From positions 1 to 58,020 of the forward strand of contig CAMDCJ010000001.1 of assembly GCA_945890035.1 (NCBI GenBank): a stretch of 58,020 nt of DNA. The letters are read 5' to 3'. Positions 2,183 through 52,279 of the stretch are shown here, piece by piece. The position numbers and the translations under genes were made by a program. The DNA is from Rickettsia typhi (lineage in GTDB: Bacteria > Pseudomonadota > Alphaproteobacteria > Rickettsiales > UBA1997). Numbering within the stretch: position 1 is the first letter of the stretch; each line of letters starts with the position of its first letter. The notes under the pieces are model-generated. The model did not search any database. It had not been told where the DNA came from and was given only the letters and a program-made list of their open reading frames with translations.

Positions 2183-2310
2183 AATCCTCGTCGAATTTTA
2201 AGCGCTTACTTCGTTGTTCATCGAACCCTCAAAGCTCAATGTATTAAAATACATTTTCGCTTCTCGTCTCTCGACCGCCTCGTAATCATCTTAAAATTCT
2301 TAGAGGATTT
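2183..2310. repeat. ~128-nt imperfect palindromic element abutting the comM stop codon
   Basis: Left end aaatcctcgtcgaattttaag pairs with right end cttaaaattcttagaggattt. Central hairpin is aatgtatt-aa-aatacatt. The element starts 0-2 nt from the TAA at 2180-2182. Confidence 0.7.
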
Positions 2311-2358
2311 AGGGCACAACTTTTTACTTTTTTAAATTTATTCGTCGAACTTTAAGCG
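2276..2358 (+). repeat. 83-nt perfect direct repeat, copy 1
   Basis: cgcctcgtaatcatcttaaaattcttagaggatttagggcacaactttttacttttttaaatttattcgtcgaactttaagcg is identical to 2664-2746. Similarity continues for about 10 nt on each side with mismatches. Confidence 0.95.
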
Positions 2359-2574
2359 CTTTCGGGAGCCGTGGGGGGTCAAAAAACCCAAGGCATCAAA
2401 GTTTTTGAGGTTACGAGAAAAGTTAAAGAAAAAAAATTCCAAAAGAACGACCTCTTGATTTATTTAAAAGTTTTTAAATTTATCAATTTTTTAGATTAAA
2501 AACAAAATCAAAAAATTGTTTTTGAAAATTTTTTTGCGGATAAACGCTTCATTTTTTTTCAAAAAAAATTCGCG

Positions 2575-2656
2575 ACTGGGACCCGCGTCGCCTTTGGCTC
2601 CTTATTCCGTTATTCGCTAAAAATAGCCGTTTAAACTATTTTTTAAACGCGAAGAA
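2575..2656. repeat. Composite module D+C; its inverted partner is at 2776-2858
   Basis: ctgggacccgcgtcgcctttggctccttattccgt plus ttcgctaaaaatagccgtttaaactattttttaaacgcgaa aligns at roughly 80% identity to the reverse complement of 2776-2858. Confidence 0.75.
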
Positions 2657-2663
2657 CCTCGAA

Positions 2664-2746
2664 CGCCTCGTAATCATCTTAAAATTCTTAGAGGATTTAG
2701 GGCACAACTTTTTACTTTTTTAAATTTATTCGTCGAACTTTAAGCG
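2664..2746 (+). repeat. 83-nt perfect direct repeat, copy 2
   Basis: Character-for-character identical to 2276-2358. Confidence 0.95.
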
Positions 2747-2758
2747 ATTTCGGAATCC

Positions 2759-3187
2759 AGCTCCCCCCTTGAGGGCTCTTCGCGTTTAAAAAATAGCCTA
2801 AATGGCTATTTTTAGCGAAGAGCGGGATAAGGAGCGAAGGCGACGAAATCCCTGGGGCAAATCTTTTTCGAAGAAAAAGATGAAGCGTTTTTCTAAAAAA
2901 AATTCCAAAAAGACAATTTCTTGATTTTAAATTTAATCCAAAATTTATAATTTTTTAAAGAAAAATTGAGTTACTTTTTTAGTTTAAAAGTTAAATCAAG
3001 AAATTGACTTTTTTGAATTTCTTTTATTTTAAAATTCGATATAATCGATAATTCATTGTCTCTGTAGCTTTTCTGACCCCCCACGTCTCCGCGAATTTAA
3101 CTACCGTTAAATCCGCGTAGCCTGCTCTTCGCTAAAAATAGCCGTTTAAACTATTTTTTAAACGCGAAGAGCCCTCAAGGGGGGAGC
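2759..3187. repeat. ~430-nt giant imperfect inverted repeat (composite palindromic element, copy X-i)
   Basis: Both outer arms are a GC hairpin (agctccccccttgaggg.. / ..ccctcaaggggggagct), each interrupted by a 47-nt family-C palindrome (2776-2822, 3125-3171). Inner inverted modules are aaaaaattccaaaaagacaatttcttgatttt (about 2897-2928) and aaatcaagaaattgacttttttgaattt (about 2993-3020). The right arm carries gcttttctgaccccccac (3067-3084) and the hairpin gcgaatttaac-tacc-gttaaatccgc (3091-3116). Confidence 0.8.
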
Positions 3188-3291
3188 TAGAGCCCGCTGA
3201 TGTTGCGAGTGTTTTTGTAAATGTAGGTTTATAAGCCTCTCAAGGGGAGTGGGAGCTATAGAACGTAAGCGTTGCGAGTTTTTTGTATATT
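3183..3291. repeat. Two tandem copies of flank module E, running up to the lpdA stop codon
   Basis: gagctagagcccgctgatgttgcgagtgtttttgtaaatgtaggtttataagcc is followed by gagctatagaacgtaagcgttgcgagttttttgta. Related copies lie at 24691-24800 and 51927-51990. Confidence 0.7.
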
Positions 3292-37050: not shown

Positions 37051-39402
37051 TTAACTAAAAAATCCGCGTCTTTTTTTAGTAGGATCTTCACGATCTCCGC
37101 CTGAGCGACGATCTCTGTCACCACTACCTCTTCTATCTTCGCGACGGTCATCACCGCCTCCTCTTCTATCTTCACGACGATCATCGCCACCTCTTCTTCT
37201 GTCGCGACCTTCGCCACCTCTTTCGCCACGACTATCATCGCCACGAGGAGAAAATTCGCGCTCATCAACCATATTTGGTTTGTTAGCGATTTTATCAGAA
37301 ATATCTTCGCCAGTTGTTTGGTCAACACATCTGAAGCTTAATTTAGGACGACCTTTTTTGTCGAAACCTATAACTTTAACTTTAACAACATCGCCTTCAT
37401 TGATAACATCTTCAACAAAATCAATGCGATATTCAGCAAGTTCTGAAATATGAACAAAGCCATCGCGATTATTAGAAATGCTTACGAAAGCTCCGGCATC
37501 GATTACTTTAACTACTGGACCTTCATAGATATCACCAATTTCTGGTTCAAAAGTAATTTCTTGAATCATGCTGATAGCTTTTTTGATGCATTCAGCGCTG
37601 TTTGAAGCGATTTTAACAATTCCGCTATCTTCGATATCAACTGAAGCTCCAGAAACTGCGCAAATTTCTTTGATTACTGCGCCTCTTGAGCCGATAACTT
37701 CACGAATTTTCTTTTGAGCAATATTGATAATTTCAATTTTAGGAACGTTAGTGTTTAGTTCGGTTCTAGGAGTTGACATAACGGCATCCATTTTGTCAAG
37801 AATATGAATTCGACCTTCAAGAGCTTGGTTCAAAGCTTTTTCCATAATTTCAGCGGTAATTCCGTTGATTTTAATGTCCATTTGAAGTGCTGTAATTCCA
37901 TTTCTTGAACCAGCAACTTTGAAATCCATATCGCCAAGATGATCTTCATCACCCATGATATCAGAAAGAATAACATAATTTTCACCTTCTTTAATCAAAC
38001 CCATGGCGATTCCAGAAACTGAAGATTGAATCGGAACTCCAGAATCCATTAATGCAAGCGATGTTCCGCAAACTGTGGCCATTGAAGAAGAGCCGTTTGA
38101 TTCAGTTATTTCAGAAACGATACGAGTTGTATATGAGAATTTTTCAGCACTAGGGTAAACTGGATTGATAGCTCTCCAAGCAAGTTTTCCGTGACCAATT
38201 TCACGACGTCCCGGTGATTTTAGTTGGCCAACTTCTCCAACAGAATATGGTGGGAAATTGTAATGAAGCATGAAAGATTCTTCGGCCATTACTGCATCTA
38301 AATTTTCAATAAGTTGTTTGTCTTTTCCGCCAGCGCCAAGAGTTGATACAACCAAAGCTTGAGTTTCGCCACGAGTGAACAAAGCTGAACCGTGAACTTG
38401 TGGTAAAATACCAACTTCGATTTCAATTTGTCTGATTTGATCAGTTTTACGACCATCGATTCTAAGACCATTTTTTAAAATATCGTTACGAACGATTTCT
38501 TGAGATAGAATTTTAAAAATAGATTTGATTTTATTGTCATCAATTCCTTGTTCGGCATTGACGAATTTTTCTTTAACATCGCTAAGAATTTTTTCAAGAT
38601 CACTTGAGCGAGCTTGTTTTTCAAGTTTTTTGTAAGCTTTGATTAAACGATCACCAATGAAAGTTGTGATGTTATTTTTTAAAGCCACATTATCTTGTTT
38701 GGCGATAACCATTTTTGGTTTTCCGCTTTCAGCTTTAAATTCTTCAATCATGGCGATAACTTCTTGGAAAGCATTATGTCCAAAATTTACTGCTTCTAAC
38801 ATTTTTTGCTCAGATAGTTCTTTTGCTTCTGATTCAACCATTAAAACTGAAGTTTTGGTTCCGGCTACAATTAGATCAAGAGTGCTACCTTTAAGTTCTT
38901 CGTTGCTAGGATTTAATACAAATTCATTGTTGATTAATCCAACTCTAGAAGCGGCGACAACCATTTCAAATGGAGCTTCTGAAATTGATAAGGCAGCTGA
39001 AGCGCCAATTAAGGCAGGAATATCAGGATTACAAGTTGGATCGTAAGATAAAACTGTGCAAACAACATTCACTTCATTATAAAAATTTGCTGGAAACATT
39101 GGGCGAATTGGACGATCAATTAATCGTGAAACTAAAGTCGCAACTTCTGAAGGTTTAGTTTCTCTTTTAAAAAAGCCACCAGGAATTTTTCCTGCAGCGT
39201 ATGATTTTTCTAAGTAATTAACGGTTAAAGGAAAGAAATCTGTTCCTTCGGCAGCTTTTGAAGCAATAGTTACCGCGCATAAAATTGTAGTGTTGCCGTA
39301 TTTTACGATTACTGAGCCATTGGCTTGTCTTGCTATTTTTCCTGTTTCGATTGATAAGGTTTTACCATTCCAATTGATTTCTTTTTTTACAACATTGAAC
39401 AT
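37051..39402 (-). CDS. pnp: Polyribonucleotide nucleotidyltransferase (PNPase) with an Arg/Gly/Asp-rich C-terminal extension
   Basis: 783 aa with two RNase PH domains, KH and S1 domains (…FVHISELAEYRIDFVEDVINEGDVVKVKVIGFDKKGRPKLS). These are followed by about 80 extra low-complexity residues. Confidence 0.95.
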   Translation of the reverse strand: MFNVVKKEINWNGKTLSIETGKIARQANGSVIVKYGNTTILCAVTIASKAAEGTDFFPLTVNYLEKSYAAGKIPGGFFKRETKPSEVATLVSRLIDRPIRPMFPANFYNEVNVVCTVLSYDPTCNPDIPALIGASAALSISEAPFEMVVAASRVGLINNEFVLNPSNEELKGSTLDLIVAGTKTSVLMVESEAKELSEQKMLEAVNFGHNAFQEVIAMIEEFKAESGKPKMVIAKQDNVALKNNITTFIGDRLIKAYKKLEKQARSSDLEKILSDVKEKFVNAEQGIDDNKIKSIFKILSQEIVRNDILKNGLRIDGRKTDQIRQIEIEVGILPQVHGSALFTRGETQALVVSTLGAGGKDKQLIENLDAVMAEESFMLHYNFPPYSVGEVGQLKSPGRREIGHGKLAWRAINPVYPSAEKFSYTTRIVSEITESNGSSSMATVCGTSLALMDSGVPIQSSVSGIAMGLIKEGENYVILSDIMGDEDHLGDMDFKVAGSRNGITALQMDIKINGITAEIMEKALNQALEGRIHILDKMDAVMSTPRTELNTNVPKIEIINIAQKKIREVIGSRGAVIKEICAVSGASVDIEDSGIVKIASNSAECIKKAISMIQEITFEPEIGDIYEGPVVKVIDAGAFVSISNNRDGFVHISELAEYRIDFVEDVINEGDVVKVKVIGFDKKGRPKLSFRCVDQTTGEDISDKIANKPNMVDEREFSPRGDDSRGERGGEGRDRRRGGDDRREDRRGGGDDRREDRRGSGDRDRRSGGDREDPTKKRRGFFS

Positions 39403-47090: not shown

Positions 47091-47091
47091 A

Positions 47092-47382
47092 AAATACCAC
47101 TTCCACTCTTAAATGATGCGACTGAATTTTGTGGAACTCGTCTTTGCGCGCCTACATTTAGTAGGCTTACGCAGACTCGTCCTTAAATTCAATCGCCTGA
47201 TTTAAGATTGGAAGCGGTATTTCTGAGAGACTAATAAATGATGCGACTGAATTTTGTGGAACTCGTCTTTGCGCGCCTACATTTAGTAGGCTTACGCAGA
47301 CTCGTCCTTAAATTCATTCGCCTCATTTAAGATTGGAAGCGGTATTTCTGAGAGACTAATAAATGATGCGAGGAGAATTTTG
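47092..47382 (+). repeat. Family-A palindromic element duplicated in tandem (125-nt period; 2 full copies plus a partial third)
   Basis: Units 47111-47235 and 47236-47360 differ at only 2 positions (caatcgcctgattt vs cattcgcctcattt). The third unit starts at 47361 (aaatgatgcga..) and then diverges. The array starts 2 nt after the stop at 47088-47090. Confidence 0.92.
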
Positions 47383-47386
47383 CTCA

Positions 47387-47550
47387 ACGCTTCATCTTTT
47401 TCGAAGAAAAAGATGAAGCGTTTATCCGCAAAAAAAATTTTCAAAATGGCAATTTCTTGATTTAACTTTTGAACTAAAAAATCACCAATTTTTGTTTGAA
47501 AAATTTATAAATTTTGTCGATTAAAGTCAAAATCAAAAATTTTCAAAGCA
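47387..47550. repeat. Perfect 16-bp palindrome (family G) followed by the AT-rich inverted modules shared with loci 2400-3030 and 24400-24580
   Basis: acgcttcatctttttc-gaa-gaaaaagatgaagcgt (47387-47421), then ttatccgcaaaaaaaattttcaaaatggcaatttcttgatttaac... . Related sequences are 2861-2935, the reverse complement of 2500-2560, and a degenerate copy at about 470-505. Confidence 0.75.
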
Positions 47551-50931: not shown

Positions 50932-51364
50932 TAATAAGCAAAAAAGATCAATTTTTGTGGCAGGAATTTTTTTAATATCAATTATTTCACTAATTTTTAT
51001 TTTAAAAAATTTTCAAAATAATATTGTCTTTTTTTTCTCGCCATCCGAAATTGATAAAATCCGCTCAAGCCTTTCAAGCGTAAGAGTGGGAGGTATGATA
51101 AAAAAAGATTCAATTAAAAAAATCGACGCTTTAACGACCGAGTTTATTATTACTGATTACAAAAATGACTTAGCAATTAATTATCGTGGAATTTTACCCG
51201 ATCTATTTAGAGATGAACAAGGAGTAGTTGCCAAAGGTAAAATAAATATTGTAGAAAATAAATTTTATTCAAGTGAATTATTGGTGAAGCATGATGAAAA
51301 TTATATGCCACCTGAGGTTGCCAAAGATTTAAAAATGAAAATACCGGATTCCACTCTTAAATGA
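50912..51364 (+). CDS. ccmE: Cytochrome c-type biogenesis heme chaperone CcmE
   Basis: 150 aa with an N-terminal anchor, ..VRVGGMI.., GVVAKG and the heme-binding LVKHDENYMPPEV. The last 9 codons and the stop lie inside a family-A repeat. Confidence 0.88.
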   Translation: MFKKSLNNKQKRSIFVAGIFLISIISLIFILKNFQNNIVFFFSPSEIDKIRSSLSSVRVGGMIKKDSIKKIDALTTEFIITDYKNDLAINYRGILPDLFRDEQGVVAKGKINIVENKFYSSELLVKHDENYMPPEVAKDLKMKIPDSTLK

Positions 51365-51471
51365 TGCGACCGAATTTTGCGGATCTCGTCTTTGCGCGCC
51401 TACTTTAGAGTAGGCTTACGCAGACTCGTCCTTAAATTCAATCGCCTGATTTAAGATTGGAAGCGGTATTT
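51338..51471. repeat. Family-A palindromic element, copy A5, overlapping the ccmE 3' end
   Basis: aaataccggattccactcttaaatgatgcgaccgaattt ... aaattcaatcgcctgatttaagattggaagcggtattt. It is about 85-90% identical (by eye) to 23928-24059 and 47092-47223. Confidence 0.85.
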
Positions 51472-51531
51472 ATGAGAAACTAATGAGTTATGTTGTTGAG
51501 TTTAGGCTATTTTTTTAACGCAAATAACCTA

Positions 51532-51557
51532 GATTTAAGATTGGAAGCGGTATTTAT
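51532..51557 (+). repeat. Solo copy of the family-A right terminus
   Basis: gatttaagattggaagcggtatttat is identical to 51448-51473. Confidence 0.9.
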
Positions 51558-51655
51558 CGTGTTACACATTAAATTTGCTAGCGCAAATTTAGCTTTTTAG
51601 TTGAATCGCTCCATGGCGAATAAATCGCCGTATTCGCGATGAGTTCGGTGCCATT

Positions 51656-51931
51656 GCTCCCCCCTTGAGGGGGAGCGGGCTCCGAGGATTTAACGGTAGT
51701 TAAATTCGCGGAGACGTGGGGGGTCAAAAAAGCTACAGCGACAATTAATTATCGATTATATCGAATTTTAAAATAAAAGAAATTCAAGAAATCGTCTTAT
51801 TTAGAATTTTTTTGTTTTAACTTTTCTCGGAACATTAAAACCTTTGGTGCTCTAAGTTTTTGACCCCCCACGATTCTAGAAACTTAACTACCGTTAAGTT
51901 TCTAGAATCTGCTCCCCCTCAAGGGGGGAGC
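51656..51931. repeat. ~276-nt giant imperfect inverted repeat (composite palindromic element, copy X-iv)
   Basis: The left arm is gctccccccttgagggggagc (51656-51676)..ggatttaac-ggta-gttaaattc..gtggggggtcaaaaaagc (51716-51733). The right arm is tttttgaccccccac (about 51857-51871)..attctagaaacttaac-tacc-gttaagtttctagaat (51873-51908)..gctccccctcaaggggggagc (51911-51931). Confidence 0.85.
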
Positions 51932-51990
51932 TATATTCCGTAAGCGTTGTGAGCATTTTTGTAAAATGTAGGGGTATAAGCCCCTTTAGA
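51927..51990. repeat. Flank module E, copy at locus iv
   Basis: ggagctatattccgtaagcgttgtgagcatttttgtaaaatgtaggggtataagcccc aligns with 3183-3291. Confidence 0.7.
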
Positions 51991-52279
51991 AGGACTTGCA
52001 TTAATCCAAATTCTTGGCGATGCGGAGAGGGGTCAGAAAAGCATAGATAATGAACGGTTTCGCATCAATAGTAAAAATTTTCCAAAATAGTTTTTTACAA
52101 AAGCTAATTTCTTGAATCGATTAAAAGCATTCGAATTTTATAACTTTTCAAATCTTTAATATTTCTGAAGCATAAACCTAAAAAGTTTCATAAAAATTCT
52201 TGCACTTTTTAACTTACTAATCAAAATTAAAAATTATTATTAGCCCAATTAAATTTTAAATTTAAATTATAGGTTTCAC

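Follow-up and report, generated by a model that had tools for sequence, protein, structure and literature searches.

The comM–lpd interval and its repeat modules

The 58,020-nucleotide stretch of contig CAMDCJ010000001.1 analysed here (the window) has a GC content of 29–37% and carries alphaproteobacterial housekeeping genes (ComM, Lpd, DnaG, RpoD, RecJ, CcmE, and ParB), and repeat modules fill its long intergenic gaps (2183–3291, 23930–24806, 47091–47550, and 51365–52279). In the first of these gaps, between the convergent genes comM and lpd, lies X-i, a composite element in which a 47-nt hairpin module, C, sits in the stem of a GC-rich hairpin, H, in both arms. Palindromic repeat modules form an intergenic mosaic here, and the chromosome that carries it is that of an uncultured freshwater Rickettsiales bacterium. 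In a collection of species-representative genomes, which does not hold the window's own species, the closest relatives are freshwater metagenome-assembled genomes (MAGs) labelled Rickettsiales or Alphaproteobacteria, with Lpd identities of up to 96% in protein and 87% in DNA, and the window sequence was detected in more than 20 lake and river metagenomes.

The left side of X-i reads agctccccccttgaggg (2759–2775), followed by C (2776–2822, 47 nt) and cggg, and the right side reads cctg, followed by C (3125–3171, 47 nt) and ccctcaaggggggagc (3172–3187). The two copies, C1 and C2, are mutually inverted, and the sequence thus agrees with the original prediction that C occupies mirror positions of H in opposite orientation. 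The components of X-i are as follows.

2760–2775, plus strand: left H remnant, comprising the 5' strand of the GC hairpin, its loop, and GGG (gctccccccttgaggg); the 3' strand is broken by C
2776–2822, minus strand: C1, a 47-nt hairpin module of the C-a type with the ends CTCTTCGC…GCGAAGAG; end part of an inverted Y-B-C
About 2823–2862, minus strand: module B, part of the composite of about 140 nt at 2774–2917 with C1 and Y
About 2863–2917, minus strand: module Y, part of the same composite with C1 and B
2918–3066, no strand assigned: middle of X-i, AT-rich, with the motif aaatcaagaaat… common to other X copies
3077–3084, minus strand: W of the right arm, CCCCCCAC on the plus strand, which is the G-rich 3' tail GUGGGGGG in the RNA sense
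3085–3124, minus strand: right-arm helix P, whose conserved loop reads aactaccgtt; includes the first G of H
3125–3171, plus strand: C2, a solo C with C-a ends; takes the place of CTCC of H and has a core with a stem-breaking GG>AA change
3172–3187, plus strand: H', the distal 16 nt of hairpin H
3188–3290, plus strand: tail units, repeats of about 65 nt after H', each ending in a degenerate H'-like hairpin; they reach the lpd stop codon

The arms of X-i are complementary only in their H part and C, over about 64–79 nt per arm (90% for H' plus C over 79 nt). The sequences just inside C are unrelated (14 of 40 positions identical): the left arm, mid-Y-B-C-H', runs on into B and Y, and the right arm, mid-W-P-C-H', into helix P and the C6 tract W. 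The giant inverted repeat described in the original prediction is therefore real for the inverted, complementary H and C and extends no further. C1 matches C2 at all but 3 of 47 positions, and the core of C2 is identical not to C1 but to C3, a third copy at 2610–2656 that, as predicted, has no contact with H. The GG>AA change of C2 and C3 breaks the inner stem and is absent from the other distinct copies collected from other genomes. The ctc/gag ends are common to C1 and C2 and missing in C3, and they track adjacency to H in other genomes as well.

H is hairpin 1 of an arm of 55–75 nt made up of H, a variable covarying hairpin P, and a G-rich tail W, in the layout 5'-CCCCCCAC-variable helix P-GCTCCCCCTCAAGGGGGGAGC-3'. 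H reads GCUCCCCCCUUGAGGGGGAGC, with an 8-bp stem (GCUCCCCC/GGGGGAGC), and W reads GUGGGGGG, invariant or with one change. Intact H is found at 24287–24307, 51656–51676, and 51911–51931, together with a one-mismatch H at 24673–24693, while no match is expected by chance (100 shuffles). Two of the intact hairpins had been placed correctly beforehand, the one given as starting at 24286 was off by one, and the mismatched hairpin is a fourth. They belong to arms that are free of C or intact.

24287–24354, plus strand: left arm of X-ii, intact H-P-W without C
24626–24693, minus strand: right arm of X-ii, intact, H with one mismatch, without C; collinear with the right arm of X-i
51656–51723, plus strand: left arm of X-iii, intact
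51864–51931, minus strand: right arm of X-iii, intact; full-length sub-threshold match to the RNA family Whalefall-1

Helix P occurs in 63 distinct sequences of 18–57 nt, nearly all of which fold as a hairpin, and its anchored positions pair in 68% of cases versus 41% in shuffles. The arms stand mostly in inverted pairs, tail-in or tail-out. In the arm sample H and W are invariant by ascertainment, so a covariance model of the arms cannot test remote homology; because of this, and because the MAFFT alignment mis-registers the outer part of P, such a model was dropped. In three loci (L227, L300, and L302), P is chimeric, with 5' and 3' halves of different P types that no longer pair and that meet at the conserved loop AACTACCGTT.

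C folds as a strong hairpin (−26 kcal/mol, z −6.4 to −7.4) of 49 nt when the closing G-C pair is counted, with terminal inverted repeats in the form of an 8–9-bp outer stem. Across 27 distinct copies, 96.5% of cells are paired, compensatory changes occur at four pairs, and none of 500 shuffles reaches the observed covariation score. Two subfamilies are distinguished by their ends, CTCTTCGC…GCGAAGAG in C-a and T(T/A)ATTTGC…GCAAATAA in C-b. Since every B module found (18 of 18) runs into C, C is normally the end of a longer Y-B-C unit of about 140 nt or more; in the window, C1 ends the copy at 2774–2917 (minus strand) and C3 the copy at 2518–2659 (plus strand). C also occurs in tandem arrays, and the breakpoint of its half copies is the apical loop.

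Only one Rickettsiales subclade has C. The module was found in none of 74 intact arms of GC-rich loci and was not found in the sampled loci of the arm-rich MAG CAMCSJ01, so the arm is older and C the derived state. In four lake metagenomes, the depth of DNA unitigs over C is about 70–165 times single-copy depth, corresponding, as an order of magnitude and with related strains mixed, to about 100 copies of C per genome equivalent.

The junction between C and H

The census counts come from fragmented MAGs and hold among the matches listed, except that the scan in which the P loop had to precede the start of C is complete. It yielded 18 arms in about seven MAG species, or 19 solo copies of C with that of the window. 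In the arm scan, the distal half of H served as the query and its 5' neighbour was left free. In a 16-mer scan for C, about three quarters of the matches were chance matches in unrelated genomes, and a full-text literature search with the hairpin sequence returned only chance primer matches.

Among the 19 solo copies, 17 adjoin H' directly, in the form …cc(c/t)G / C / CCCTCAAGG or, in one group, …cgccc / CTC…, and two of these have a variant H' sequence. The two exceptions are a copy truncated at the loop and a copy that adjoins another GC hairpin. Relative to H', the polarity is the same in all 19. Eight further copies stand as Y-B-C-H' with the same right junction, so that 27 of 27 share one orientation. 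C enters the H stem at a point 3 nt away from the loop (G^CTCC^CCCTCAAGG); about 4 nt of the target (CTCC) are lost and no target duplication is present. The nucleotide of H' that C uses is also where the tail units after H are attached. The association of C with the hairpin elsewhere, for which the original prediction had asked, thus holds for these 27 copies of one polarity in about seven species and is partial in the other direction: when copies are found through C itself, only about 6 of 33, among the matches listed, touch H or an H2 variant.

The right arms of X-i and X-ii provide the empty-site comparison, since they are collinear on both sides of C and differ there only in having CTCC versus the 47-nt C. 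Solo C adjoins at least six different P halves, most of which are also present in arms without C. At the C-b junctions, four P 3' halves are joined exactly in the order P end, G, C, CCCTCAAGG; three of these halves are found whole in empty arms, and the fourth matches as far as the 60-nt segments reach. The two further halves are those of the window's own C-a junction, near-identical to the empty right arm of X-ii, and of the cgccc group, which recurs in several empty arms with a one-base difference at the end. C-a and C-b both use the same site in H. In L301 (7350–7860), each arm of a complete X element bears a solo C, and the arms differ in P type, one of which adjoins C-a and the other C-b; L094 has the mixed anatomy of X-i with different C subfamilies in its arms.

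The adjacency of comM and lpd is kept in none of 33 related MAG loci (L119–L151), and X-i lies at a synteny break. No X or C was found downstream of lpd in the 33 related MAGs; because of this and the lost synteny, there is no empty-site comparison at lpd. A metagenome scan for the right junction of X-i gave no matches. The Logan unitigs over X-i are short, and some of their joints restore an intact H (3127>3172 plus ‘C’), which probably reflects paralogous arms rather than alleles.

Origin of the C–H junction

Repeated, site- and strand-specific integration of C into H is the explanation held here with moderate confidence. According to this explanation, several independent events would have attached C to a single breakpoint in the H stem, always with the same polarity, replacing about 4 nt and leaving no target duplication, and the C-bearing arms would then have multiplied as units. 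In X-i, the left arm would have taken C as Y-B-C and the right arm a solo C, and the element looks symmetric because its arms are inverted and each was occupied separately. The suggestion in the original prediction that C targets the hairpin is supported by the fixed site and polarity, the at least six P halves, and the spread over about seven species, with the corrections that the site is in the stem rather than at the apex and that the hairpin is not the exclusive location of C.

The loss of CTCC, the lack of a target duplication, and the single polarity favour a single-strand or hairpin mechanism. Most likely, hairpin DNA that is extruded or single-stranded would be cut and joined in a strand-specific manner. 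An HUH-type nuclease like those acting on repetitive extragenic palindromic (REP) sequences is one candidate agent for this, and replication template switching is the other; the latter may operate at microhomologies of 2–4 nt (cccG on the left and CC on the right) that are common to the B-C and P-H junctions. The fixed orientation, the left flank cc(c/t)G, and the absence of a duplication agree with insertion of the IS200/IS605 type. A cut-and-paste DDE transposase does not seem likely. Derivation of C from a DDE element as a miniature inverted-repeat transposable element was considered and is disfavoured: terminal inverted repeats are present, but there is no target-site duplication and 27 of 27 copies have one orientation.

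Several observations weigh against repeated integration. Most C copies are not adjacent to H, and the census derives from fragmented MAGs and the matches listed. One P type with C-a occurs at three loci of one MAG (L299, L305, and L310), amplification of an occupied arm therefore accounts for part of the pattern, and recombination between arms, as in the chimeric P helices described above, could have inflated the count of independent events. An occupied/empty polymorphism at an orthologous site was not found in public DNA unitigs or in the metagenome scan. Neither the window nor 2.35 Mb of sampled loci yielded a gene for a REP-associated tyrosine transposase (RAYT) or Y1 enzyme in a tblastn search whose query was an approximate Escherichia coli RAYT and whose match lay only in an unrelated MAG. 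The open reading frames (ORFs) flanked by arms gave QueG only and none is transposase-like, and Pfam assigned housekeeping functions to ten flanking genes. A split C flanking an ORF was also not seen among the loci examined.

The main rival is a single origin, in which one or a few ancestral arms received C by chance and then spread by amplification and by recombination or gene conversion among repeats, without any targeting; this is possible, although the balance of evidence makes it less than probable. It is consistent with one P type and C-a junction recurring at three loci within a single MAG as well as in three further MAGs (L094, L299, L305, L310, and L311), and with the recurrence of an X-i-like composite at a non-orthologous locus in L094. 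The chimeric P helices are proof that arms recombine at the conserved loop of P, and the loop-broken half C and the tandem C arrays indicate palindrome-driven rearrangement. However, at least six P 3' halves directly abut C, leaving only 1–4 nt for a crossover, and five of the six, the window's included, are found in empty arms with at most small differences. The use of the same nucleotide by two C subfamilies and the combination of different P types with different C subfamilies in the single element of L301 also argue against a shared ancestral junction. The narrower proposal that C was inserted once in one arm before an inverted duplication made X-i is highly improbable, for the 90% complementarity of H' plus C over 79 nt that speaks for it ends where the arms diverge into different classes (mid-Y-B-C-H' versus mid-W-P-C-H'; 14 of 40 positions identical), and the derived core of C2 matches C3 rather than C1. 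Intramolecular gene conversion that copied C between the arms and kept them alike has an equally slight probability: the ctc/gag ends shared by C1 and C2 but not C3 would suit it, but in other genomes too such ends go along with a neighbouring H, 3 of 47 positions separate C1 from C2, the C2 core equals that of C3, and the arms of L094 and L301 hold different subfamilies. Neither of these two routes, both offered in the original prediction, is thus upheld, and paired C copies are not each other's closest relatives, either in X-i or, by subfamily, in L094 and L301.

It is unlikely, but more plausible than these two routes, that C was kept or recruited as an RNA-level bidirectional terminator or 3'-end stabiliser between convergent genes, its position reflecting selection on the folded arm; such a role for C is possible and compatible with the other explanations. 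The C hairpin is strong, its A/T tracts give a U run on either strand, partly inside the stem, compensatory changes keep both stems, and X-i lies between convergent comM and lpd. A three-way junction, in which the 5' strand of H pairs with W, is predicted for the C-bearing arm, an RNA contig spans from lpd through H' into C2, and module B on the minus strand was called terminator-like. On the other side, a consensus terminator scan made no call on C, C2 and C3 of the window carry stem-breaking changes, and RNA depth over the repeats is just a few times that of lpd, which, against a DNA depth of about 70–165 times, means a low RNA signal per repeat copy. The RNA contigs carry neither strand nor end information, and function alone leaves the fixed junction, the 4-nt loss, and the tandem arrays unexplained. 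Least probable of all is an assembly artefact in which the metagenome assembler misjoined repeat copies into C-in-H junctions. The window is repeat-rich and probably metagenome-derived, and public unitigs break inside these repeats, but these junctions recur in about seven MAG species that were assembled independently, in four lake metagenomes short DNA unitigs cover parts of the X-i repeats, and the RNA contig from lpd crosses the C2-H' junction.

Relation to Whalefall-1 and to known repeat systems

Whalefall-1 (RF01762) was described as a pair of hairpins with a purine-rich tail after them, found in a whale-fall metagenome alone and with no known function (Weinberg et al., 2010; PMC2864571). 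In a permissive Rfam search, the arm at 51862–51933 aligned over its full length to RF01762 with 24.5 bits versus a gathering score of 37, H corresponding to hairpin 1, P to hairpin 2, and GUGGGGGG to the purine-rich tail. This was the only one of the five intact window arms reported in permissive mode, and nothing in the window was reported at the gathering threshold of 37 bits. The arm has the C-rich/G-rich hairpin 1, the variable paired hairpin 2, and the purine-rich 3' tail of the family, and it is not classed as a member because it falls below the curated threshold. In L275, from a MAG of 55% GC that also has H-type arms, two above-threshold Whalefall-1 matches (44.5 and 37.6 bits) form an inverted pair at 2214–2347. 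Each whale-fall seed contig inspected (Weinberg et al., 2010, Additional file 4, whalefall-1.sto) likewise has a second, inverted copy with the tail GGGUGAGGAC about 45 nt upstream, of which the consulted parts of the paper and its supplements (PMC2864571) make no mention. The resemblance extends to a C/G-rich hairpin with a UUG-type loop, a variable second hairpin, and a purine-rich tail; the difference is that Whalefall-1 was described as a free-standing small RNA from one metagenome, whereas here the unit is a high-copy inverted-pair repeat in many lineages. The arm is read as a Whalefall-1-like unit behaving like a REP or a REPIN (a pair of inverted REPs). Metatranscriptome contigs, which hold no strand or end information, cover H' within the lpd 3' region.

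The arms occur in MAGs of 29–69% GC, including AT-rich Rickettsiales and MAGs of 48–69% GC labelled Gammaproteobacteria, Azospirillum, Bauldia, and others. The exact 21-nt hairpin and CCCCCCAC are common to the MAGs of 48–69% GC assigned to different classes (L200–L296; e.g., L200, L222, L243, and L253), which suggests horizontal spread or very strong constraint. A ‘seacave’ MAG has two arm types, paired both head-to-head and tail-to-tail. The H stem and the 3' tail co-vary by subtype (CUCCCCCC/GUGGGGGG, CUCUCCCC/GGAGAGGGGG, and CCUCUCC/GGGUGAGG, from window 51656–51723, L094 4170–4240, L275, and the Rfam seeds). The tail is a partial Watson–Crick competitor for the 5' strand of H and also a mirror image of the purine strand, so that alternative pairing or triplex formation is conceivable. 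The covariation of tail and stem would mean that the arm can switch between two folds. For an arm whose 3' H strand is interrupted by C, fold prediction gives pairing between W and the 5' strand of H, with a three-way junction closed by it; an effect of C on the fold switch is a prediction from folding.

It is tentatively proposed, with doubt outweighing support, that the H-P-W arm, and Whalefall-1 along with it, is the unit of a widespread REPIN-like mobile palindrome, distributed from Rickettsiales to GC-rich Proteobacteria, whose enzyme would cut the stem of hairpin 1 (GCTCC^CCC). Jointly with it and equally tentatively, C may be a second-order hitch-hiker on the cut site, a parasite of a genomic parasite.

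The closest counterparts are the REPs and REPINs mobilised by RAYTs, which are likewise short, high-copy extragenic palindromes; they stand between genes as inverted pairs, in many cases at the 3' end of a gene, with several arm subtypes per genome. The arms here differ in being longer (55–75 nt) and three-part and in sharing their core across very different lineages; GTAG precedes H in some P types only, unlike the conserved GTAG of REPs, and no RAYT gene was found in the sequence sampled. Bacterial interspersed mosaic elements (BIMEs) of enterobacteria also alternate palindromic units with a limited vocabulary of modules (here C, B, Y, R, and tail units), although their sequences and hosts are unrelated and C lies inside the palindrome stem rather than between units. 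Insertion sequences of the IS1397, ISKpn1, and ISPpu9/10 type target REP or BIME hairpins and thus share with C a repeated palindrome as the specific target of a mobile sequence; in contrast, C is a non-coding 47-nt hairpin in its own right, with one orientation and no duplication of its target. The IS200/IS605-derived palindrome-associated transposable elements (PATEs) resemble C in orientation-specific insertion without target duplication, recognition of hairpins, and a plausible single-strand mechanism, but C has perfect terminal inverted repeats and a target loss of about 4 nt, and no TnpA was found in the sampled loci. Rickettsia palindromic elements (RPEs) are palindromic repeats of about 100–150 nt, dispersed in a Rickettsiales genome and with no known transposase, that are known for in-frame insertion into genes. 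Y-B-C is similar to them by description only, in size, palindromy, and host order, and the in-frame gene insertion of RPEs was not seen here.

The remaining repeats of the window include the following.

2270–2370, plus strand: direct repeat D6, 101 nt, with a second copy at 2658–2758 that is 96% identical
2518–2659, plus strand: second Y-B-C composite, in direct orientation; contains C3 (2610–2656), which does not contact H
51500–51529, plus strand: half copy of C, comprising the 3' half, of the C-b type; the break is at the apical loop, and a 25-nt duplication of module R flanks the copy

The half copy had been predicted close by, at about 51510–51535; the direct duplication that flanks it (window 51443–51555) is of the end of module R and reads gatttaagattggaagcggtattta. 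One copy of D6 precedes an orphan W at 2365–2386 and the other precedes the left H, and an inverted pair of about 300 nt (W-mid-Y-B-C; 2365–2658 versus 2774–3085) overlaps X-i. These two repeats point to a local history of duplication and inversion beyond the C insertions. Module R (122–125 nt) directly follows the stop codons of three genes (23938–24059, 47101–47354, and 51350–51471) and is tandemly duplicated at 47105–47354 with 97% identity. Upstream of X-ii, the short tandem repeat aatctcacat occurs about four times (window 24108–24150), and in the middle of X-ii lies a GC-rich, perfect long hairpin, cacccctcaccctaaccctctcccc…ggggagagggttagggtgagggg (window 24461–24525), that also adjoins C or half C in L309 and L311. 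Elsewhere, three 33-nt tandem repeats of 70–85% identity (37118–37213) lie within a 783-aa ORF on the minus strand (37051–39402).

C or arm copies were found within a few hundred bases of contig ends in L001, L006, L032, L059, L077, L080, L089, and others, and these repeats probably fragment the MAG assemblies. For work with MAGs, the repeats at contig ends of freshwater Rickettsiales genomes appear to be places where assemblies break.

The finding is a REP/BIME-like mosaic in which a hairpin module is nested at a fixed stem site of a Whalefall-1-like unit, and such a variant is new. Whalefall-1, without a known function or host since 2010, is now placed as an inverted-pair repeat arm in many uncultured Proteobacteria. 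The repeated joining of one module to one nucleotide of another, in one polarity, is a natural experiment on the little-understood process by which such mosaics are built, and the fixed junction therefore pinpoints a probable cleavage or joining site that is testable biochemically.

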